IMG/VR virus record: IMGVR_UViG_2706794664_000002
Source of the DNA: a virus
Taxonomy: Duplodnaviria; Heunggongvirae; Uroviricota; Caudoviricetes
DNA: 24,991 nt
Direction: 5' to 3' (one strand)
Shown here in pieces: positions 1 to 24,991 of the stretch. The notes beneath the pieces were generated by a model. It made no database searches, was not told the DNA's origin, and saw only the letters and a list, made by a program, of their open reading frames with translations. Position 1 is the first letter of the stretch; each line of letters starts with the position of its first letter. A program made the translations under genes and the position numbers.

Positions 1-85
1 AGGGACAGCTGATAGAAACAGAAGCCACTGGAGCACCTCAAAAACACCATCATACACTAAATCAGTAAGTTGGCAGCATCACCAG
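1..85 (-). mobile_element. IS1 insertion sequence, left terminus plus first codons of insA (partial; element body continues beyond window start)
   Basis: Reverse complement of 1-85 reads GGTGATGCTGCCAACTTACTGAT (IS1 terminal inverted repeat, window 63-85) and continues through the GTG start of insA (complement of 26-28), matching the IS1 left end as I recall it. Not checked against a database. Confidence 0.8.
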
Positions 86-402
86 CCTTCTTGAGGCTAC
101 CACCTGTTTTCAGGTGTCATTCAGACGTGATTTGCCCCAGATTGGGAAAGCACGCTTTTTTCTCAGCTATCGTCCTCTTATTTTGCCGTTACATTTCTTT
201 TTGCACTCTAATGATTAATTTACAATAATAATATCGGTAATTATTGAGTAATAATAAATTGATTATTGCAAATGTAATTTAATTCCATCTTCGCGTTATA
301 TTCCAATCTTTAATCTCCGCATGGAACAAGTTGCATGCGTGACTATATTAAGACAACTTATAACCACCAAAACATTTGCTTTGCAAGCAAAAACAGTGAC
401 CA

Positions 403-431
403 TTGACTCTAAGAAAATTCCGATCTATTGT
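403..431 (+). promoter_or_regulatory. Candidate sigma70 promoter (-35 TTGACT 403-408, 17-bp spacer, -10 TATTGT 426-431)
   Basis: Hexamers with near-consensus -35 and a 17-bp spacer, upstream of a small ORF and a downstream terminator. AT-rich context makes chance matches likely. Confidence 0.2.
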
Positions 432-465
432 TAGGGTCATCAAAGTTACTTAACAGTATTCCGAA

Positions 466-567
466 ATGAAAATACAAAGCAAGCTAATTGTCTTATTAAA
501 CATTATTATTGCATTTATATTATTTGAGCTTTTAGCTCAAAAATTTGGTTTGAGTACATTATTTTAA
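466..567 (+). CDS. Hypothetical 33-aa hydrophobic peptide (MKIQSKLIVLLNIIIAFILFELLAQKFGLSTLF)
   Basis: ATG at 466 to TAA at 565-567, translated by hand; a single predicted transmembrane-like stretch. No clear Shine-Dalgarno, so it may be non-coding. Confidence 0.15.
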   Translation: MKIQSKLIVLLNIIIAFILFELLAQKFGLSTLF

Positions 568-716
568 AGCAAGATAAACAATATCGGGCACTCTAGTTTT
601 TATAATTAACAATTAAACGTCCATAAAATGTTATTTACTTTTCTTCGCTATTGTCATATCTTAATATAGTGGCTTACGCCACTCTACTTTCATCACATTT
701 TGTACGTTTATGTACT

Positions 717-746
717 CGCCATGAAGCTCTTTCATGGCGATTTTTT
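717..746 (+). terminator. Rho-independent terminator (9-bp stem CGCCATGAA / TTCATGGCG, 5-nt loop, T6 tract)
   Basis: Perfect inverted repeat 717-725 / 731-739 followed by TTTTTT at 741-746 on the plus strand. The minus-strand reading has no U tract, so it is unidirectional. Confidence 0.5.
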
Positions 747-832
747 ATTCTTAATCCAAGAACATACTCCCTACCTATAGCAAAATCACTTTTTTAACAA
801 AAGAATAACGTATTTAGGTAATCATTACGAAT

Positions 833-1285
833 TTACCCTATAGGTGCTACTGGCCATTCAATATCCGGTGCAGTTGATGTATCAACACGGTTCAGCAACA
901 CCCGATACTTTTTCCAGGCTTCCAGCAACAAGGTTTCTTTCTCCGTTGCGATCTCCAGATCCACAGCATCCTGAAGCGGCGCTATATGCTCACTGGCTAC
1001 CTGCATCAGGCTGTTTTTTGTTTCTTCCGCCTCCCGGATCCGGAACAGTTTTTCTGCTTCCGTATCCTTCACCCAGGCTGTGCCGTTCCACTTCTGAAAC
1101 TCCCCTTCCGGGGATAACCAGGTGACATTTTCCGGTAATGAGCCGAGTTCAGAAATAAATAACGCGTCGCCGGAAGCCACGTCATAAACCGTTTTACCCC
1201 GATGATCTTCAACGAGATGCCACGATGTTTGCAGGCAGACCTGTATGAGGCGGAATATATGCGTCACCTTCACCAATAAATTCAT
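833..1285 (-). CDS. tfa: Tail fibre assembly protein Tfa, C-terminal domain ORF (150 codons from an internal ATG)
   Basis: Translation ...[28 protein letters not shown]...[22 protein letters not shown] matches the lambda Tfa C-terminal region; stop at 833-835. The lambda-like N-terminus lies in a different frame (see next feature). Confidence 0.75.
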
Positions 1286-1349
1286 TAGTTCCGGCCAGCA
1301 GGTTATAAATTTTTATGGTCCGTGCTTGTTCACTCATTCTGAATGCCAT
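1209..1349 (-). pseudogene. tfa: tfa N-terminal fragment (46 codons, [46 protein letters not shown]), out of frame with the C-terminal ORF
   Basis: Hand translation from the ATG at complement 1347-1349, which overlaps the stf stop as TAATG, reproduces the lambda Tfa N-terminus and then hits TGA at 1209-1211. About 20 codons present in lambda Tfa between PAN and SWHLV are absent, and the two halves differ by one frame. Confidence 0.5.
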
Positions 1350-4025
1350 TATGCGAGCCTCACAATATAGTTAAATGCGATGTTTTTGACGGTGTTTTCC
1401 GCGTTACCAGCAGCGTTAACGGTGATGGTGTGTCCATGTGAACCAATCGCAACAGAGTGCGTATGAGCACCAATACCGACAGTATGCGCGTGTGCACCCG
1501 CAGATGCTGCTGTGCCGGACAGTGAGTGTGTATGGTTTCCTTCTGAAGATGATTTACCTACCCATTGGGAGGTGCCACTGGTTAATGAGCCACTGATACC
1601 AACCTGATTAGTCCCGCTAACTTGAGTACTCCCTGCCGGAAACATTCCAGTAGGTTGACTCCCGCTATTCGTTCTGGGCCCAGTCTGACTATGTTGGTGG
1701 GCCCCAGCTGAACTTGTAGAGCCGCTCAGACTGTGCGTATGCGCCCCGGTGTTATTCGTGGATTTAGTGCCGTAATCAAACGACGATGTGGTTTTCGTCC
1801 CCAAATCCGTACTGGATGCGCTGGCGCTGTGGGTGTGCGATTTAATGCCATCCTGTTCCTGAGACAATACGGCACGACCACTGGCGGGCTTGCCCTTAAT
1901 CGTCCAGCCACGCATATCAGGGATCACGCCTGACGGATAAGCGGCTGCAAGTTTCGGGTAAGCAGATTTGTCAAAAGTCTGCCCCTGCATCAGGGCATAA
2001 CCAGACGGAACGGTATCTGATGGCCACGGGATTGGTGCACCGACTGGATAAAACTCTGCAGGAGGATGAGCCGAGGTGTAAAGCTGCGCCCACGGCGACC
2101 AGTTTGCGTCGGTCGTATCCCGTCGTGAACGAATAAATGCCGGAGCATGAGCACCGCTTGTACCACTCCAGCCGATGAGTAACTCACCTTCGCCAACGGC
2201 TGTCATCCCTTTCAGGTGAATGATATTTCCATACGCTGTTGGATATCCGTTGTTATACACCTCGTATAACTCAAGACCTGCTGCCCCCTGCGTATTGTCT
2301 GTCAGCGCGGCTACCCGACCTTTTGAAGCCAGATTAACTGATGATACTGCTGTTCCACCTGACGGTAGCGCCCCGATCTCTGATGCCGTTGGCTTATTTC
2401 TGGAGTTATAGTCCCTTCGCCAGCCAGGTGAATAATCTGTTCCGTGATTAATATAGGTAAACTGGGCGTTGGTTGTTCCGCCACCGCTGGATGTGGTCGG
2501 AGTGGTAATGCGGATCGTCATCGCTGACTTTATCCCCATTACTTCAATGACAGCTCCGGCGAGATGAATATTACCGCAGCCAGTATCAGTAATGATTTTA
2601 TTATTGCCATAAGACCAGGAACCCTTGCACATCCAGTATGGATGGTTAAATGCTCCCTGAGAATCCAGCCACTCGATAAACTGTGCAGTCGTCCAGTTTC
2701 CTGTTGTTGTGCTTACTGACCCACCGAAGGCACGGCAGGCACCAATATTTTTCGTAAAGGTGTCTTTGCCAGGGATATCCGCACCGTTCTGATCTTTCTG
2801 CAGACGTTTCTCAGCATTGTCATTGGCTGCTTTTACTGCCTTTGGCGTTGCCGCCAGCGTTTCAGACGTGCTGTTGGTCGCGCTGCTTAGCTGGATTATC
2901 CCTTTCTGTGCTGTCGTTGCATCCTGTGCGGTGTATTTCCCGTTAGCCAGGTCATACGCGGCCTTAACGGCTTTTGGTGTTGCCGCCAGTGACTCGGAAG
3001 TGCTGTTAGTCGCACTACTGAGCTGTACTATCCCCTTTTTCGTCGTGCTCGCATCCTCAAGCGCCACGGCGGATGCAATATCCTCTGCCCGTTTTGCCGC
3101 TGTCTCAGCGCGCGTTGCTGCAGATTCCGCCGTACTTTTGCTCTGAGCTGCTGCCGTCGCACTACCAGCAGCCTCTGTCGCCTTCGTGGATGCCGTCGTG
3201 GCGCTGCCCTTCGCTGCTGACGCCTGTCTGGTCGCCTCATCTTTTGAAGCAGACGCCGATGATGCCGATGACGCCGCCGAACTGGCGGACGATGCGGCAG
3301 CCGTTTTTGAGGATTCTNNNNNNNNNNNNNNNNNNNNNNNNNNNNNNNNNNNNNNNNNNNNNNNNNNNNNNNNNNNNNNNNNNNNNNNNNNNNNNNNNNN
3401 NNNNNNNNNNNNNNNNNNNNNNNNNNNNNNNNNNNNNNNNNNNNNNNNNNNNNNNNNNNNNNNNNNNNNNNNNNNNNNNNNNNNNNNNNNNNNNNNNNNN
3501 NNNNNNNNNNNNNNNNNNNNNNNNNNNNNNNNNNNNNNNNNNNNNNNNNNNNNNNNNNNNNNNNNNNNNNNNNNNNNNNNNNNNNNNNNNNNNNNNNNNN
3601 TGATTTCTTCGCGGCTGCCGTGTTCTGTGCCACCGCGGACGCGTTACGCGCCACCTCTTCCACCATCAGCTCAAAACGGCGCAGTGCCTCCGGACGGGCA
3701 TCATCCTCCGTCATGGCACCGAGAAAATCATTCAGNNNNNNNNNNNNNNNNNNNNNNNNNNNNNNNNNNNNNNNNNNNNNNNNNNNNNNNNNNNNNNNNN
3801 NNNNNNNNNNNNNNNNNNNNNNNNNNNNNNNNNNNNNNNNNNNNNNNNNNNNNNNNNNNNNNNNNNNNNNNNNNNNNNNNNNNNNNNNNNNNNNNNNNNN
3901 NNNNNNNNNNNNNNNNNNNNNNNNNNNNNNNNNNNNNNNNNNNNNNNNNNNNNNNNNNNNNNNNNNNNNNNNNNNNNNNNNNNNNNNNNNNNNNNNNNNN
4001 NNNNNNNNNNAATCTTTACTGCCAT
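1349..4025 (-). CDS. stf: Side tail fibre protein Stf (interrupted by N blocks 3318-3600 and 3736-4010)
   Basis: N-terminus MAVKI... at complement 4023-4025; internal [33 protein letters not shown]; C-terminal half with His-rich GAHxHS repeats ending [16 protein letters not shown] (stop 1349-1351). Frame changes across the N blocks, so the length is approximate. Confidence 0.85.
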
Positions 4026-4034
4026 ATTCACCCC

Positions 4035-4063
4035 ACAAAAAAGCCCGCCTGAACCGGCGGGCT
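4035..4063 (-). terminator. Rho-independent terminator between lom and stf
   Basis: On the minus strand: 8-bp GC-rich stem (4056-4063 / 4042-4049), 6-nt loop, then a U tract (plus-strand A run 4035-4041). Confidence 0.5.
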
Positions 4064-4089
4064 GTCATAACACTGTGTTACCTGGCTAA

Positions 4090-4667
4090 TCAGAATTTAT
4101 AACCGACACCCACGATGAAACCGTCAGTGCGCCAGAGACGTGTTGCTGTGGCGACCGTCATCACTTCCGGTCAGCACATCGTGCGTTTTCCCCTTATTGT
4201 CAGTTACGCGGATATAATCCCCGGAAAAAGTCGACACACGGCTGTAAGCCACACCCACCATCGCATACGNNNNNNNNNNNNNNNNNNNNNNNNNNNNNNN
4301 NNNNNNNNNNNNNNNNNNNNNNNNNNNNNNNNNNNNNNNNNNNNNNNNNNNNNNNNNNNNNNNNNNNNNNNNNNNNNNNNNNNNNNNNNNNNNNNNNNNN
4401 NNNNNNNNNNNNNNNNNNNNNNNNNNNNNNNNNNNNNNNNNNNNNNNNNNNNNNNNNNNNNNNNNNNNNNNNNNNNNNNNNNNNNNNNNNNNNNNNNNNN
4501 NNNNNNNNNNNNNNNNNNNNNNNNNNNNNNNNNNNNNNNNNNNNGTTGGTCCGGGCATGAAGATACCCCGCGCTCAGCGTGGACTGATGTTCAGACGCCC
4601 ATGCAGGCGCACCGGATACGGCCAGGCAAATGGCTGCGGACAAAATGGCTGCACAAACTTTACGCAT
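4090..4667 (-). CDS. lom: Outer membrane protein Lom (Ail/Lom family beta-barrel), lysogenic-conversion moron; interrupted by N block 4270-4544
   Basis: N-terminus MRKVCAAILSAAICLAVSGAPAWASEHQSTLSAGYLHARTN (signal peptide) after a GAGG Shine-Dalgarno; C-terminus ...GFIVGVGYKF* with stop at 4090-4092. Confidence 0.85.
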
Positions 4668-4737: not shown

Positions 4738-7700
4738 TCAACGAATACTGATGCCGGAAGCCGCTTTTTTGGTCACAATCACCGTACAGTCGGTGATATT
4801 GCCTGCCCCCTGATTGCCTTTCTGGAAAATCTTAAACTCCAGAGTGACGCTACCACCACCACTAGGCATATCAATAACTGCACTGTAACTACCGGGAATG
4901 GCACCTTTAGTTTCTCTGGATGCGATTAATACGCCGTTTTTGCGAACTTCAAAACCATAACCCGTGTATCGCGTGCCTCCTGGGTTATTTCCGCTCCCCG
5001 GATCGTCATACGCTATACCGTTAAAAATAATGGGCGGAATAATAATCTGGCGGTCAAAGTTATGATCATCGCTTATGGTGACTGTAACCGTCCCGTTTGG
5101 TGTTTCCGTGTTACCCCACGTACCAGCCTGTTTCGGAAATGATTTGGATACAGCTTTAACGAAGTCACCTCTGACCTGAGTCGCCTCCAGCATGCCCTTA
5201 ATCGTACAGTTTTCATTTACCGTGACATTGTTGAGCGTCCCGGCGTTCGCATTCACACTGCCACTGATATCCGCATTTTTAGCGGTCAGCTTTCCGTCCG
5301 GAGTCAGGGAAAATGCCGATGGATTTCCACCGCTGGTAATGGTGGGGGCCGTCAGGCGTTTCAGGAACACGTCGTTCATGAATATCTGATCGCCCTGACC
5401 AACAAACATCGGTTTTGTGTTGCCATTCGCAGGATTAACCATCGCAATCCTGTCCGCCGCCAGCAGCACCTGACTCTGCATGCCGTCAGGGGTGTTCTCA
5501 ATACCGGCACCAATACCCGCGATATAAAGGCGTCCGTCCTGCATCTGCTGCAGCTTCACAGCCCACATGCTGTTCAGGTTATTATTTGTATCAACCTGAA
5601 CCTTCTGTATCTGCTGAATTGCCGCACTCTGGTCTTCCAGTTTCTTATTGACGGTCTGCGTGATTTCATTGCTGACATCCGTAATGGACGTCCTGATTTC
5701 AGCCAGGTCAGGCGCAAGCTGACCGTTATCAATCTGCGTCCACAGCTCCTGAGCCAGATGGGTTTTCCCTATCTCGCCTTTGAAAAAATCCAGATAACCG
5801 GATGCATCATCACTCGGCTGACCAACAGCCTCCACGAATGCCGATTTGCCAACGGTGTTCACACTGCGGATATAAAAGTAATAATCATGGCCCGGTTTGA
5901 TATTGATACTGGCGGCTATCCAGTACAGCGCCGTGCCAAGATAGCGTGCTGTGGTTTCAACCTGCCTGATATCCGCAATCCGCTTTTCCGAGAACCAGAA
6001 CTCAAACTGTACCGTCGGATCATAAACCGCAAGATGCGGCGTGGCGGTTATCTGAAAATAGCCCGGCGTCAGCTCAATCCGCGACAGCGCTGCCGGTGCG
6101 GCAATCCGGAACGATACCGACGCCGGATCGCCCTGCTGCCCCCACGCATTTACTGCCCGGACTGTCAGCCTGTAGTTCCCCAGCGCCAGTTGTGTGAAGC
6201 GGTAAGTGGTTTCCGTCGTCCGGGCCGTGCTGACCAGCCGCTCACTGCCGTCATCCGCTGTTACGGTCAGACGGAGCAGGAAGCTCACGCCCTTCACCAC
6301 CTTCGGCGTGTCCCAGCGCGCCAGCACCTGATATTCCCCGCTGTCTGCGGTGACTTCGGCAGTCAGGTGCTGCACCGCTGGCGGCGTGACACCATTCACC
6401 GTGCCGCTCTGGTCGCCGTCAAAGTGCGCCCCGTTATCCACGATGGCTTCTTTTTCCGGCACATGCTGCACGGCGGTGATGGCATACGTGCCGTCGTCGT
6501 TCTCACGGATACTCACGCAGCGGAACAATCGCTGGTGCAGCGTCGGCAGCTTCAGCCCCCACACGCTGTATTCAGCAACACCGTCAGGAACACGGCTCAC
6601 TTTTACCTTCACGCCGTCGGTGACGGACTGGACCTCCACGCTGACCGGATTCCCCTGCCCGTNNNNNNNNNNNNNNNNNNNNNNNNNNNNNNNNNNNNNN
6701 NNNNNNNNNNNNNNNNNNNNNNNNNNNNNNNNNNNNNNNNNNNNNNNNNNNNNNNNNNNNNNNNNNNNNNNNNNNNNNNNNNNNNNNNNNNNNNNNNNNN
6801 NNNNNNNNNNNNNNNNNNNNNNNNNNNNNNNNNNNNNNNNNNNNNNNNNNNNNNNNNNNNNNNNNNNNNNNNNNNNNNNNNNNNNNNNNNNNNNNNNNNN
6901 NNNNNNNNNNNNNNNNNNNNNNNNNNNNNNGCCCCCGGCTGGTACAGCCAAAGGCATCCATCTTCGTGACGTTACGACCGTAACGGACAATGGCCTGCGT
7001 ATCCTCCACAAGCTCTGTCGCCGTCTCCCAGCCGTTATCCGGGTCAATCCAGTTCACCTCAACGGCATTATGGCGGTCTTTCAGGGCGCTGAAACTGTAG
7101 CGGAACGGCGCGCCATCATCCGGCATCACCACATTACTGCGGTTATAGGCCCACACCTTATCCGACTGTCGGTCCTGCACGAACGTCAGCGTCTGCCCGT
7201 TCCATACCGGCATACAGCGCATCGCCGAGCAGAAATCACTGAGCACATCCCACGCCTTGCGCTGTGTGGTCAGCCAGGCATTACAGGTGATGCGCGGCTC
7301 CGTGCTGCCAAAGCCGTCCGGCACCGACTGGTCACAGTACTGGCCGATGACATACAGCGCCCATTTATCCACATCTGCCGCACCAAGACGTTTCCCCATG
7401 CCATAGCGCGGATGGGTCAGCATATCCCACAGACACCAGGCCATGTTGTTGCTGTATGCCGGTTTTAACGTTCCGTCCCAGATACCGCTGTATTGCCGCG
7501 TCTGCGGATTATAGTTCGACGGCACCTGCAGAATGCGCCCGCGAAGATGATAATTACGGCTCACCTGCTGGCTGCCGAACTGCTCCGAATCCACCTGTAC
7601 GCCGACCAGTGCCGTGTTCGGGTAGCACTGTTTCACATCGATGATTTCGGTGTATGACGACCAGAGCGTTTTGTTCTGCAGCTGGTCTGTGGTGCTGTCC

Positions 7701-8989: not shown

Positions 8990-9677
8990 TTGTCGGTATA
9001 CCTCTCTCGTTTGCTCAGTTGTTCAGGAATATGGTGCAGCAGCTCGCCGTCACCACAGTAAATGGCGGCATGATTCGGCACCGATGAACCAAAACAGCAC
9101 AGCAGCACATCGCCCGGCTGCGCCGCTGACAACGGCACCTGATACAGCCCTGTGGCCTCCAGATTATCCAGATAGAGATTCTGACCGTGACGCCACCAGT
9201 CATCCTCACGATGAAAATCCGGCATCTCAATCCCCGCCAGATGGTAAGCATCCCGGAACNNNNNNNNNNNNNNNNNNNNNNNNNNNNNNNNNNNNNNNNN
9301 NNNNNNNNNNNNNNNNNNNNNNNNNNNNNNNNNNNNNNNNNNNNNNNNNNNNNNNNNNNNNNNNNNNNNNNNNNNNNNNNNNNNNNNNNNNNNNNNNNNN
9401 NNNNNNNNNNNNNNNNNNNNNNNNNNNNNNNNNNNNNNNNNNNNNNNNNNNNNNNNNNNNNNNNNNNNNNNNNNNNNNNNNNNNNNNNNNNNNNNNNNNN
9501 NNNNNNNNNNNNNNNNNNNNNNNNNNNNNNNNNNNNNNNNNNNNNNNCCGGCTCACCGGAGATATTCACGCAGGGGAAATATCTTTCCCCCTCCGGCGTT
9601 CTTACCACGAAGCCGCACGACTCCGCTGGAGCACATCGCCGGGCGTGCGCCAGAATCGCTGATTCTGTCTCTGTCAT
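8887..9677 (-). CDS. K: Tail tip assembly protein K (MPN/JAB-like N-terminal part plus NlpC/P60-like C-terminal part); N block 9260-9547 inside
   Basis: N-terminal ORF MTETESAILAHARRCAPAESCGFVV... and C-terminal ORF ...PGDVLLCCFGSSVPNHAAIYCGDGELLHHIPEQLSKRERYT... (Cys/His catalytic motifs) flank the N block; stop at 8887-8889. Confidence 0.88.
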
Positions 9678-10710: not shown

Positions 10711-13221
10711 CGTCCACCTCCGGAGAACAGGCCACCATCACGCATCTGTGTCTGAATTTCATCACGGGCACCCTTGCGGGCCATGTCATACACGGCCTTC
10801 ATCATCTGTGGACCTGGCAGACCATTCGTACCGTCGTTCTGAATCACCACGTGATTGTTCTGATTAAAATTAATGCCTTCAGCCCGCCGCATCTGCGCCG
10901 GACTTCCGGCACCGCCCACATAACCACCTTCCGCATAGCCGCGCATCAGCCGGTAGAGATTCCCCACGCCAATCCGGCTGGTTGCCTCCTTCGTGAAGAC
11001 AAATTCACCACGGTGAACAATCCCCGCTGGCTCATATTTGCCGCCGGTTCCCGTAAATCCCCCGGTTGCAAAATGGAATTTCGCCGCAGCGGCCTGAATG
11101 GCTGTACCACCTGACGCGGATGCGCCGCCACCAACAGCCCCGCCANNNNNNNNNNNNNNNNNNNNNNNNNNNNNNNNNNNNNNNNNNNNNNNNNNNNNNN
11201 NNNNNNNNNNNNNNNNNNNNNNNNNNNNNNNNNNNNNNNNNNNNNNNNNNNNNNNNNNNNNNNNNNNNNNNNNNNNNNNNNNNNNNNNNNNNNNNNNNNN
11301 NNNNNNNNNNNNNNNNNNNNNNNNNNNNNNNNNNNNNNNNNNNNNNNNNNNNNNNNNNNNNNNNNNNNNNNNNNNNNNNNNNNNNNNNNNNNNNNNNNNN
11401 NNCCAGAGGATTATCGCCATACTGTTCCTTCAGGCGCTGTTCCGTGGCTTCCCGCGCTGCCTGCCGGTCAGTCAGCCCCCGGTTTTTCGCATCAATGGCT
11501 GCCCGTTTTGCCCGTTGCTGCTGTGCGAATTTATCCGCCTGCTGCGCCAGCGCATTCAGGTGCTCCTGATACGTAACCTTGTCACCAAGTGCAGCCAGCT
11601 GGCGTTTGTACTCCAGCGTCTCGTCTTTATGCGCCAGCAGGGATTTCTCCTGTGCGGACAGCTGGCGACGTTGTGCCGCCTCCTCCAGTACCGCGAACTG
11701 ACTTTCTGCCTTCCACAAATCCCGGCGCTGCTGGCTGATTTTCTCATTCGCTCCGGCATGCTTCTCCAGCGTCCGGAGTTCTGCCTGAAGCGTCAGCAGG
11801 GCCGCATGAGCACTGTCTTCCTGACGATCGCCCGCATACACCTTCACGCCGGACTGTTTCGGCTTTTTCAGCGTCGCTTCATAATCCTTTTTCGCCGCCG
11901 CCATCAGCGTGTTGTAATCTGCCTGCAGGATTTTTCCGTCTTTCAGTGCCTTGTTCAGTTCTTCCTGACGGGCGGTATATTTCTCCAGCGGCGTCTGCAG
12001 CCGTTCGTAAGCCTTCTGCGCCTCTTCGGTATATTTCAGCCGTGACGCTTCGGTATCGCTCTGCTGCTGCGCATTTTTGTCCTGTTGACGCTGTTGATCT
12101 ACCCTCTTTTGGGCTGCATCCCGCTCCAGGCGTTTTTTTTCACGATCATCCCAGTAACGCGCCCGTGCTTCATCGTTAACGAAATAATCATCCTTGCGCA
12201 GATTCCAGATGTCGTCTGCTTTCTTAAACGCAGCCTCTGCCTTAATCAGCATCTCCTGCGCGGTATCAGGACGACCAATATCCAGCACCGCATCCCACAT
12301 GGATTTGAATGCACGTGCAGTCCTGTCTGCCCAGGTCTCCAGCGTGCCCATGTTCTCTTTCAGGCGGCGGGTCTGGTCATCAAACCCTTTCGTTGCGGCC
12401 TCGTTCGCCGCCTGCAATGCCCCGGCTTCATCGCCGGAACGCTGCAACTGAGCAACATACGCAATCTGCTCCGCCGTCACGTTATGGAACTGGCGTGCCA
12501 TCGCCGTCAGCCCCGACGTCGGGTCTGTGGTCAGCTTCCCGAAGGCTTCAGCGACCTTGTCCACCTCCACGCCGGATGCAGAGGAGAAACGCGCCACACT
12601 CTGGCTGATGGACGCAATCTGAGCCTCACCGCTTACCCCCGCCTTAACCAGTGCGCTGAGTGACTCGCTGGTCTGGTTAAACGTCAGCCCTGCCGCCTGC
12701 CCGGCTCTGGACAGGACCAGCATACGATCTGCCGTCAGTCCCGCCTGATTACCGGAAAGGACCAGCGTTTTGTTGAAATCGGACAGGGTTGAGTTGCCCT
12801 GATACCAGGCATACGCCAGCGCACCGGTCGCCACCGCCAGCGAGGTGGCCCCCACCATCGGCAGGGTGATCGCGCCGGCAAGCCCCCTGAACATGGGGAT
12901 CATCCCGCCGAAGGAGTCCTTAACCTGACCACCCTGTTGCAGCAGGATCAGCCAGGGATTCTGCCCCCCTGCAAGCTGCGTGGCCACGTCGGTGAACTGT
13001 GCAGGCAGCATACGCATGGCGGCTTTATACTGCCCGACGGAAATCCCCGCTTTCTGTGCAGCCAGCGCCTGTCGGCTCAGCGACTGTTCAACGACTGCCG
13101 CTGTTTTTTTCGCATCACTTTCCGTACCGGAAAAATGACGCCTGACTCTGGCCATCTGCTCGTCAAATCTGGCCGCATCCAGACTCAAATCAACGACCAG
13201 ATCGCCTACCGGTTCAGCCAT
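10707..13221 (-). CDS. H: Tail tape measure protein H (N block 11146-11402 inside)
   Basis: N-terminus MAEPVGDLVVDLSLDAARFDEQMARVRRHFSGTESDAKK..., long coiled-coil-like Ala/Gln/Lys/Arg-rich body, C-terminal ...GGYVGGAGSPAQMRRAEGINFNQ...GGLFSGGGR*. Confidence 0.92.
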
Positions 13222-15211: not shown

Positions 15212-15823
15212 CGCTTTATTACCATTCTCAGTTGATGCTGCAGCGCATAGCCCAGCTCTTTCGGAAGACGTTCACGCCGTATCCGTTCAATATTCTGTTT
15301 AAACGCCGTGGTCAGCGGCACCGCCATCGGGATTTTCACCACATCAATGGGGTAACGGTTTTTCCCGGCCACACGCTGCATAACATGCCACCGGCCGTTT
15401 TTCAGTTGCTGAATAAACGCGCCGGGAATACGACGGTTACCCACCANNNNNNNNNNNNNNNNNNNNNNNNNNNNNNNNNNNNNNNNNNNNNNNNNNNNNN
15501 NNNNNNNNNNNNNNNNNNNNNNNNNNNNNNNNNNNNNNNNNNNNNNNNNNNNNNNNNNNNNNNNNNNNNNNNNNNNNNNNNNNNNNNNNNNNNNNNNNNN
15601 NNNNNNNNNNNNNNNNNNNNNNNNNNNNNNNNNNNNNNNNNNNNNNNNNNNNNNNNNNNNNNNNNNNNNNNNNNNNNNNNNNNNNNNNNNNNNNNNNNNN
15701 NNNNNNNNNNNNNNNNNNNNNNNNNNNNACGCGGTTAATGGCCATTGCGGCGGCACCGGGCACCGCCGTTTTGCTGATACGGCTGAGGTTTTCAACGGCC
15801 TGCTCAAGACCTTTTATGGCCAT
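15208..15823 (-). CDS. Z: Tail completion protein Z (N block 15447-15728 inside)
   Basis: N-terminus MAIKGLEQAVENLSRISKTAVPGAAAMAINR and C-terminus ...VGNRRIPGAFIQQLKNGRWHVMQRVAGKNRYPIDVVKIPMA...RMVIKR* flank the N block. Confidence 0.88.
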
Positions 15824-18061: not shown

Positions 18062-18681
18062 CTTACACTGGTGTGTTCAGCAAATCGTTAACGGCATCAG
18101 ATGCCGGGTTACCTGCAGCCAGCGGTGCCGGTGCCNNNNNNNNNNNNNNNNNNNNNNNNNNNNNNNNNNNNNNNNNNNNNNNNNNNNNNNNNNNNNNNNN
18201 NNNNNNNNNNNNNNNNNNNNNNNNNNNNNNNNNNNNNNNNNNNNNNNNNNNNNNNNNNNNNNNNNNNNNNNNNNNNNNNNNNNNNNNNNNNNNNNNNNNN
18301 NNNNNNNNNNNNNNNNNNNNNNNNNNNNNNNNNNNNNNNNNNNNNNNNNNNNNNNNNNNNNNNNNNNNNNNNNNNNNNNNNNNNNNNNNNCTCCGTCGCT
18401 TGCACCACGCCAGTAACGTCAGCCTGCGAAGCAGTGGCTGAAACAGTTGTTGATTGAGTCTCTTTGGTCATTCGCCCTCCTGAGAGACGGGATTTACGTG
18501 CATCCAGTGCATCACGCATGACGGTGATCGCATCGGTACTGTTAACAAGTTCATCAGCCAGTCCGGCATCAATGGCCTCCTGACCGCTGTACACTGCAGC
18601 CTCGGTATCCAGCACAGCCTGCACGGACAGGCCGGTATATGCCGACACCTTCTGTGCAAACATCCGGCGGGTTGCATCCAT
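18062..18681 (-). CDS. nu3: Scaffolding protein Nu3 (in-frame internal start within C, sharing its C-terminus)
   Basis: Internal Met at C residue 239 ([19 protein letters not shown]...), which corresponds to the lambda Nu3 start as I recall it. A second in-frame Met at 18469-18471 has a strong AGGAGG Shine-Dalgarno, so the true start is uncertain. Confidence 0.5.
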
Positions 18682-19395: not shown

Positions 19396-20985
19396 TCTTC
19401 TCCTCCTCTGTTGATTGTCGCAGCCCGGATTCAAATGCCGCAGCCGCCCAGGCGGGCGGTTTAAGACCAGCTGCGCGGCGCTCCATCGTTTCACGGACCT
19501 GCTGGGCAAAAATTTCCTGATAGTCGTCACCGCGTTTCGCGCACTCTTTCTCGTAGGTGCTCAGTCCGGCTTCTATCAGCATCACCGCTTCCTGAACTTC
19601 TTTCAGACCATCGATGGCCATACGACCGGAGCCTATCCAGTCGCAGTTCCCCCAGGCACTGCGGGCTTCCTGAAAGCTGAAGCGCGCTTTTGAAGGTAAC
19701 GTCACCACGCGGCGAACGATGGCCTCTTCCAGCCAGCACAGAAACATCTGGCTCGCCTGACGGGATGCGACGAATTTTCGCCGCCCCATAAAGTACGCCC
19801 ACGACTCGTTCGCACTGGCCCGTGCCGTGGAGTAGCTCATCTGGGCGTAATTCCGGGAAAGTTGCTCATACGAGACACCCAGCCCGGCAGCGATATACCG
19901 CAACAGTGACTGCTCAAACACGGAGTAGCCGTTATCCGTGTCCTGAGCCGTCTGCAGGTTCAGTGAGTCCCCCGGCATCAGGTGCGGCACTTTTGCGCCT
20001 CCCAGACGGACCGGTGCTGCGGCGTAATACGCGGCAATTTCACCAATCCAGCCCGTCAGCCTTTCCCGCTGCTCCTTACTGTTCGCGCCCAGAATAAAAT
20101 CCATCGCTGACTGCGTATCCAGCTCACTTTCAATGGTGGCGGCATACATCGCCTTCACAATGGCGCTCTGCAGCTGCGTGTTCTGCAGCGTGTCGAGCAT
20201 CTTCATCTGCTCCATTACGCTGTAAAACACATTTGCACCGCGGGTCTGCCCGTCCTCCACGGGTTCAAAAACGTGAATGAACGAGGCGCGCCCGCCGGGT
20301 AACTCACGGGGTATCCATGTCCATTTCTGCGGCATCCAGCCAGGATAGCCGTCCTCGCTGACGTAATATCCCAGCGCCGCACCGCTGTCATTAATCTGCA
20401 CACCGGCACGGCAGTTCCGGCTGTCGCCGGTATTGTTCGGGTTGCTGATGCGCTTCGGGCTGACCATCCGGAACTGTGTCCGGAAAAGCCGCGACGAACT
20501 GGTATCCCAGGTGGCCTGAACGAACAGTTCACCGTTAAAGGCGTGCATGGCCACACCTTCCCGAATCATCATGGTAAACGTGCGTTTTCGCTCAACGTCA
20601 ATGCAGCAGCAGTCATCCTCGGCAAACTCTTTCCATGCCGCTTCAACCTCGCGGGAAAAGGCACGGGCGTCTTCCTCCCCGATGCCCAGATAGCGCCAGC
20701 TTGGGCGATGACTGAGCCGGAAAAAAGACCCGACGATATGATCCTGATGCAGCTGGATGGCGTTGGCAGCATAGCCGTTATTGCGTACCAGATCGTCTGC
20801 GCGGGCATTGCCACGGGTAAANNNNNNNNNNNNNNNNNNNNNNNNNNNNNNNNNNNNNNNNNNNNNNNNNNNNNNNNNNNNNNNNNNNNNNNNNNNNNNN
20901 NNNNNNNNNNNNNNNNNNNNNNNNNNNNNNNNNNNNNNNNNNNNNNNNNNNNNNNNNNNNNNNNNNNNNNNNNNNNNNNNNNNNN
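19376..20985 (-). CDS. B: Portal protein B (N-terminal ~50 codons fall in N block 20822-21081; start coordinate approximate)
   Basis: Readable sequence from ...FTRGNARADDLVRNNGYAANAIQLHQDH... through ...MMIREGVAMHAFNGELFVQATWDTSSSRLFRTQFRMVSPKRISNPNN... to ...[12 protein letters not shown]; stop at 19376-19378. Confidence 0.88.
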
Positions 20986-20990
20986 NNNNN

Positions 20991-23110
<2,120 letters not shown>

Positions 23111-24747: not shown

Positions 24748-24951
24748 TCATAACGTCCGGTTTCTTCCGTGCCAGAACCGGACTCGCTGGCATGATGAAA
24801 TATGTGTACCCGGTAACCCCGGTGTGCATCGTTTTTGATTATTCCCGCACACTCGCGCAGAAGGAGTTCCCCGTCGGGCTACGGTCTCTGTTAATACGGG
24901 AATACGGCGACGATTGGATTTGCCCCTATATTTCCAGACATCTGTTATCAC
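24748..24951 (-). CDS. Hypothetical small basic protein (67 aa); may be non-coding
   Basis: Only an ORF on the track (MITDVWKYRGKSNRRRIPVLTETVARRG...); no recognisable domain and no strong Shine-Dalgarno identified. Confidence 0.15.
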   Translation of the reverse strand: MITDVWKYRGKSNRRRIPVLTETVARRGTPSARVCGNNQKRCTPGLPGTHISSCQRVRFWHGRNRTL

Positions 24952-24991
24952 TTAACCCATTACAAGCCCGCTGCCGCAGATATTCCCGTGG

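Follow-up and report, generated by a model that had tools for sequence, protein, structure and literature searches.

An IS1 element at the tail-fibre end of a lambda-like Shigella sonnei prophage and the probable adjacent deletion of b-region DNA

The window, a stretch of 24,991 nucleotides filed as a virus record of the Caudoviricetes (IMGVR_UViG_2706794664_000002), opens on the end of an insertion sequence beside the tail-fibre end of a lambdoid prophage, and it raises the question of how this element came to lie there and whether prophage DNA was lost with it. The minus strand of positions 83 to 1 reads GGTGATGCTGCCAACTTACTGAT and, further on, GTGGCTTCTGTTTCTATCAGCTGTCCCT, that is, the left inverted repeat of IS1 and then the start of insA, and the complete IS1-derived stretch is GGTGATGCTGCCAACTTACTGATTTAGTGTATGATGGTGTTTTTGAGGTGCTCCAGTGGCTTCTGTTTCTATCAGCTGTCCCT. 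By direct reading of the sequence, the 23-bp left terminal inverted repeat lies at 61 to 83 (minus strand), and the same repeat also borders the full IS1 copies in the comparison loci L001, L002, L003 and L015. The 5' end of insA occupies 1 to 28 (minus strand), with a GTG start at 28-26 and nine codons translated as V/M-ASVSISCP, and the 91-residue insA gene call in Shigella sonnei 53G starts at L003 11258, which corresponds to window position 28. The left (IRL) end as a whole, 1 to 83 on the minus strand, is 100% identical both to E. coli elements annotated as 'IS1-like element IS1A/IS1B family transposase' in thousands of records and to the full 768-bp IS1 of S. sonnei 53G, and matches to it occur in at least 5003 of 5426 complete E. 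coli genomes; chance cannot account for an exact IS1 match of 83 bases. IS1 terminates at base 83, and the AG at 84-85 is flanking DNA. The stop codon of the tail-fibre assembly gene tfa begins at 833, leaving 749 bp between tfa and IS1, and insA is transcribed away from the phage genes. An earlier note on this DNA, which had allowed that a search might return no IS1 match, had taken the whole of 1-85 for the IS1 left repeat and insA start, about 750 bp beyond tfa and with the body of the element off the window; the exact match to annotated elements, the measured distance and the 768-bp copy in 53G bear this reading out, except for its last two bases, which belong to the flank.

The chromosome of S. 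sonnei 53G (HE616528.1, named as that strain in PMC5447701) is 100% identical to the window over 1-3317 and over further blocks and encodes the window's residual 150-residue Tfa letter for letter, and the best E. coli genomes reach only 98-99% identity; judged by this identity, the window is of S. sonnei origin. Ten N runs of 255-288 positions (3318-3600, 3736-4010, 4270-4544, 6663-6930, 9260-9547, 11146-11402, 15447-15728, 18136-18390, 20822-21081 and 21655-21916) are scaffold gaps, and their lengths differ from the true 53G sequence, in which 726 bp correspond, for example, to the first 283-N run with its two flanking bases (284 window positions). The open reading frames listed across such runs, for example 3028-4068, are artefacts. 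The window closes with the right end of an IS2 (24915 to 24991, 77 bases, minus strand), and at the same site the closed genome CP061367.1 has a full 1331-bp IS2 (L015 10871-12201), simply inserted between the lysis genes and a ybcV-like gene and flanked by a 5-bp duplication of its target, ACGAT. The window is thus essentially one gapped scaffold with IS1 at its left and IS2 at its right, and it begins inside IS1 because short-read assemblies break at multicopy IS elements; a start or end of this kind usually marks a repeat-broken scaffold and not a biological boundary. A gapped scaffold with ten N runs and both ends inside multicopy IS elements could also be suspected of an assembly error, in which a repeat fragment of 83 bases was wrongly joined to the scaffold end. 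This is scarcely credible, since the closed 53G chromosome and at least 79 of the 5426 complete E. coli genomes have the same 83/84 junction, and since independent draft contigs of S. sonnei also end at this point, at window 87/88. The 83/84 junction is real.

The window holds neither the body of the IS1 nor its far flank, and all evidence on a deletion is read from 53G and E. coli relatives. The 53G copy is 768 bp long (L003 11203-11970) and has both of the 23-bp imperfect inverted repeats of IS1, the left one (IRL) being GGTGATGCTGCCAACTTACTGAT and the right one (IRR), at the far end of the copy, GGTAATGACTCCAACTTATTGAT. IS1 transposition depends on a DDE transposase, InsAB', whose synthesis requires a -1 frameshift at an A6C motif and whose substrates are the 23-bp terminal repeats; a normal IS1 insertion duplicates 8-9 bp of target. 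The 53G element encodes an InsA of 91 residues, has A6C at nucleotide 307 and a -1 fusion ORF of 232 residues (InsAB'), and gives Pfam matches to Zn_ribbon_InsA, HTH_Tnp_IS1 and DDE_Tnp_IS1, and its coding capacity is intact. Compared with the E. coli O78 strain 3 copy at this site, it has 6 differences in 768 positions, and E. coli copies with the same junction carry the annotation IS1A family. The terminal repeats and the insA-insB' frameshift both identify it as a member of the IS1 family, an element of an already known kind, already annotated in public genomes. The target duplication expected of a normal insertion is lacking, and this is a sign of secondary rearrangement, not evidence against IS1 membership.

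The uninterrupted site in E. coli VG48B2 and phage ev099 reads ATATTCCA followed directly by AGCCTTCTTGAGG, and by this comparison AGCCTTCTT at 84 to 92 (plus strand) is the one copy of the presumed 9-bp target of IS1 that is still present. The focal IS1 of 53G is flanked by CACCCAATT on one side and AGCCTTCTT on the other, without a target duplication, and that of E. coli O78 strain 3 by GCCAATAAG and AGCCTTCTT, again without a duplication and with a tfa-side junction identical to that of 53G. As controls, the same script recovers the duplication TAGGAAAC around the IS1 in yodB of L002, the 8-bp duplication CCAATTTT around an IS1 in the holin-porin interval of the same prophage (L015 14938-15705), and the 9-bp duplication TACCTAATG around a second IS1 of 53G (L003 18182-18949), which is oriented like the focal copy and lies 6.2 kb beyond it. 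A composite transposon formed by this second copy, to the left, and the focal one was considered and rejected, the second copy having its own 9-bp duplication and the interval holding the core genes argW, yfdC and mlaA.

The collection of 5426 complete E. coli genomes is one without Shigella, and counts from it are lower bounds on account of about 375 IS1-rich records. At least 829 of these genomes carry the uninterrupted site and at least 101 the IRR junction of the O78 type. The junction of a simple insertion (flank, AGCCTTCTT and IRR) occurs in 0 of 5426 among the matches listed; an intermediate with a target duplication could exist unseen, because the collection lacks Shigella and the counts come from the matches listed. 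No E. coli record among the matches listed has the 53G-type IRR junction as one contiguous piece, all of these matches being in two pieces that span an extra 191 bp or more; a count of 128 for this junction in E. coli is inflated by the joining of pieces and is not used.

The IS1-free sequences of VG48B2 (L007) and ev099 (L020) run unbroken from a gene for an AraC-family regulator to tfa. Measured against such IS1-free sequences, with which both flanks are collinear, the loss comes to 741 bp in 53G and to 550 bp in E. coli O78 strain 3 and lies on the IRR side only. The IRL junction is common to 53G and the E. coli carriers counted above, whereas the IRR junctions lie 191 bp apart, and the extra 191-bp loss in S. 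sonnei brings IS1 within 15 bp of the start codon of the AraC-family gene. The annotated content of the missing stretch is only the first 11 codons of a doubtful 55-residue ORF of ev099. It also holds 340 bp (ev099 L020 4223-4562; VG48B2 L007 10117-10456) that are 97% identical to K-12 and comprise 278 bp of the yodB-serU spacer and the 3' 62 nt of serU, a piece that nearly every E. coli genome carries at the true serU locus. In L002, a related prophage is integrated at serU, and its host/phage junction lies at the same 62-nt point, 110 bp from the IS1 target. Since the serU-integrated prophage ends at this very point, the 340-bp piece is the relic attR of a serU-integrating ancestor, carried in the b region, which suggests that the tail-fibre/cargo module once resided in a serU-integrating prophage and was taken up together with host DNA. 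A relic serU att in the b region of a lambda-att phage would record this earlier life of the tail-fibre module. The loss linked to IS1 is small and confined to the dispensable b region, with no structural gene, int or working att removed.

These comparisons lead to the proposal, which we consider likely, that a complete IS1 entered the b region and that the DNA on its IRR side was lost after insertion through an IS1-promoted adjacent deletion. The first step would have been insertion of IS1 at AGCCTTCTT, a site 749 bp past tfa and 110 bp inward of the former serU-type phage end, and the tfa-side (IRL) junction would have stayed fixed thereafter. Intramolecular transposition would then have removed DNA adjacent to IRR, so that S. 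sonnei lost 741 bp and the E. coli carriers 550 bp, the second target copy and the relic attR among them and, in S. sonnei, also the upstream region of the AraC-family gene. The 550-bp and 741-bp forms may have arisen one after the other or independently. Adjacent deletion would be expected to leave just such a picture, with one junction fixed, two different far junctions, collinear flanks and no duplication, and deletions nested on a single IS end are classically the mark of the transposase-promoted route. A documented parallel is IS150 in the long-term evolution experiment, where adjacent deletions began small, were later extended and left no target duplication around the element (PMC11708052).

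The sequence of steps, and the choice of transposase over IS1-IS1 recombination as the cause, are what we infer from these junctions. RecA-dependent recombination between two directly repeated IS1 copies, the second 550 or 741 bp away, would remove one copy and the intervening DNA by a crossover and leave a hybrid IS1 without matching flanks; the end product, with no duplication and collinear flanks, would be the same, and sequence alone cannot tell the two routes apart. S. sonnei is very rich in IS1 (PMC7373316), with three copies in the roughly 43 kb considered here, and IS-IS recombination stands beside adjacent deletion as a frequent cause of missing duplications (PMC11708052). This route is nevertheless judged unlikely, since it requires two extra IS1 insertions, at -550 and at -741, for the two IRR junctions, since a two-copy intermediate was not found among the sampled carriers, and since the losses are nested on one IS end as transposase would leave them. 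A simple IS1 insertion without loss, a mere marker of an IS1-rich host, is far less probable again, even though the IS2 and the three other IS1 copies each went in as simple insertions with duplicated targets. Neither in 53G nor in E. coli O78 strain 3 do the two flanks of the focal copy match each other, the missing 550-741 bp are present in three independent IS1-free references, and the duplication-bearing junction is absent from the matches listed for the E. coli collection; for 53G and the E. coli carriers, simple insertion is contradicted by the sequences compared. The earlier note had proposed to look to the left for the other IS1 end and a target duplication and had kept simple insertion as the alternative to a deletion; the 768-bp element is indeed found there in 53G, without a duplication and with 741 bp missing beside it, in favour of deletion.

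The proposed adjacent deletion leaves the question of whether the IS1 also affected int and att. The order in ev099 is lom-stf-tfa-cargo-(relic serU att)-AraC-IS3 remnants-(84-bp intS-like integrase fragment)-P arm-core GCTTTTTTATACTAA-int-xis. At the lambda site, between ybhC and ybhB, lies the prophage of E. coli VG48B2 and of O78 strain 3, with ybhC-int-xis at one end and the P arm and 15-bp core by ybhB-bio at the other, 1.8-2.7 kb beyond IS1. The lambda-type attR of the E. coli relatives (L007 8051-8212) is 83% identical to lambda attP, and the core of ev099 is exact. The prophage of O78 strain 3 is apparently complete at about 46 kb despite the IS1, its int lying about 45 kb away at the opposite end, and the IS1 with its 550-bp loss appears to be harmless to it.

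The argW side of 53G is different. No lambda-type attR or attP-like sequence was found within 9.2 kb beyond IS1 in 53G, where phage homology stops inside the 84-bp integrase fragment and continues at that point as a complete intS-like integrase of 385 residues (L003 13432-14825, window-relative about -3539 to -2146), of which ev099 and the E. coli prophages keep only the last 84 bp. This intS adjoins the tRNA-Arg(CCT) gene argW, with yfdC and mlaA alongside, lies 1.46 kb beyond IS1 and converges on the tail genes. A regular intS-argW lysogen was considered and rejected, no second argW att being found in the window, L003 or L015 (43 kb), and tail genes that converge on intS are not in the order of a regular lysogen. 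The arrangement may have come about, we infer, by a homologous exchange in which the b-region module of the phage recombined with a related argW island; both sites are approximately symmetric about the replication terminus on the K-12 map, and a terminus-symmetric inversion could be involved. Since the breakpoint lies in intS homology, about 2.1 kb from IS1, the replacement of attR is not attributable to the focal IS1. Of the earlier supposition that the b-region or att-int side had been rearranged, the b-region loss and, in 53G, the absent attR remain, and int itself lies at the opposite end of the prophage; the proposal to locate int and att relative to the IS thus led to an int about 45 kb away in O78 strain 3 and to intS-argW in place of a lambda-type attR in 53G. 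The same note's suggestion of an IS1-rich host agrees with the S. sonnei sequence, in which about 43 kb contain three copies of IS1 and one of IS2.

On present comparisons, the element carrying the window is best described as a lambda-like (Radostvirus ev099-like) prophage of S. sonnei. Between IS1 and tfa lies an AT-rich remnant of the b (cargo) region (84 to 832), which is 97.5% identical to ev099 L020 4673-5421 and to E. coli prophages. It contains a hydrophobic ORF of 33 residues, MKIQSKLIVLLNIIIAFILFELLAQKFGLSTLF (466-567, plus strand), that weakly resembles YncL, a small stress-response membrane protein (NCBIfam NF000537, E 1.3e-5, 25 bits, below the cut-off of 35), with a promoter-like site at 403-431 and a terminator-like hairpin at 716-740 nearby, and this ORF could be a small-protein cargo gene of the phage. 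Promoter-like sites in 1-900 are no more frequent than in shuffled sequence, and the terminator scan of the same 900 positions gave two terminator-like hairpins. Searching window 1-1400 against Rfam at permissive thresholds gave nothing at the IS1 junction or in 84-832.

The tfa gene (833 to 1350, minus strand) is disrupted by a 64-bp deletion at 1227/1228 relative to E. coli O78 strain 3 and ev099, which shifts the frame and leaves a residual ORF of 150 residues with a Pfam Caudo_TAP match. Inside tfa, at 873-1071 (minus strand), is the sole Rfam match of 1-1400, IS009 (RF02111), with 218 bits against a gathering threshold of 117. On the other side of IS1, the AraC-family regulator of 247 residues (L001 6366-7109; L003 11986-12728; L006 9067-9810) resembles YdeO and GadX below cut-offs, and the same gene is found in O157:H7 at about 0.33 Mb with 99% DNA identity; by its family and its O157:H7 position it may be PatE (z0321, OI-8), a prophage-encoded activator of acid resistance. 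The 53G gene is frameshifted, and its upstream region is gone with the IS1-linked deletion. In the interior of the S. sonnei prophage, the IS2 lies between the ybcV-like and lysis genes and a further IS1 between holin and porin. Several independent lesions thus contribute to the decay of the S. sonnei prophage, and the IS1 that opens the window is among them without being decisive.

The focal IS1 is also met in other surroundings. The AraC-side junction of the O78 type is present in at least 101 E. coli genomes as against at least 79 for the tfa-side junction. E. coli 2 HS-C (L018) has the AraC-side junction of the O78 type and, at the IRL side, a DEAD/DEAH helicase locus next to IS1; in E. 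coli WY517-2 (L019) the IRL side abuts rclA and the AraC-side junction lies further out, unlike the O78 type. These differing IRL-side neighbours make the focal IS1 a point of repeated rearrangement. It is possible, though we put this forward only tentatively and as somewhat doubtful, that IS1 is an old b-region passenger of a still-infectious lambda-att lineage, spread by lysogeny, and an anchor of deletion and rearrangement. If true, this would explain the identical junction in at least 79 unrelated-looking E. coli genomes, at least one of them with a complete prophage, and in S. sonnei, and the rearrangement in S. sonnei might extend to a terminus-symmetric inversion in which intS-argW took the place of attR-bio. 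Shigella is well known for IS1 expansion, for deletions linked to IS elements and for prophage decay, and roughly half or more of its IS insertions are IS1 (PMC7373316). The significance of the locus is accordingly small, a case of familiar genome erosion that adds little beyond bookkeeping; the missing duplication and the comparison with IS-free phages make it a worked example of an IS1-anchored deletion series in E. coli and S. sonnei.

Compared with known elements, the focal copy has the IRL, insA start, length and frameshift site of IS1A/IS1B and of the resident S. sonnei IS1, and differs from simple IS1 insertions in lacking their 8-9-bp target duplication. In the IS1 deletions of the gal region of K-12 and in the IS150 deletions, as here, one junction is kept, the loss on the other side varies and no duplication is left. 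The IS150 case is documented stepwise, whereas here the steps are reconstructed from comparative genomics, and the losses, 0.55 and 0.74 kb, affect dispensable prophage DNA only.

Among the lambda-att lambdoid phages, ev099 (Radostvirus) is 96-99% identical to the window and 53G in the tfa-distal region, and the match to mEp332 and PhiR70_1 covers only the query of about 1 kb, from the serU relic to the end of tfa. The isolated phages are without IS1, and E. coli O78 strain 3 has a whole prophage with the same IS1 junction. The S. sonnei prophage is set apart from the isolated phages by the 64-bp tfa deletion, the inner IS2 and IS1, the frameshift in the AraC-family gene and the lack of a lambda-type attR. 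Its lysis/Q region past the IS2 is like that of DLP12 of K-12, with homologues of ybcV, ylcI, nohD, porin, quuD, rusA, ybcO and ninE, and both prophages are riddled with IS elements. Unlike DLP12, the S. sonnei element, as far as the scaffold gaps show, keeps the full set of head and tail genes.
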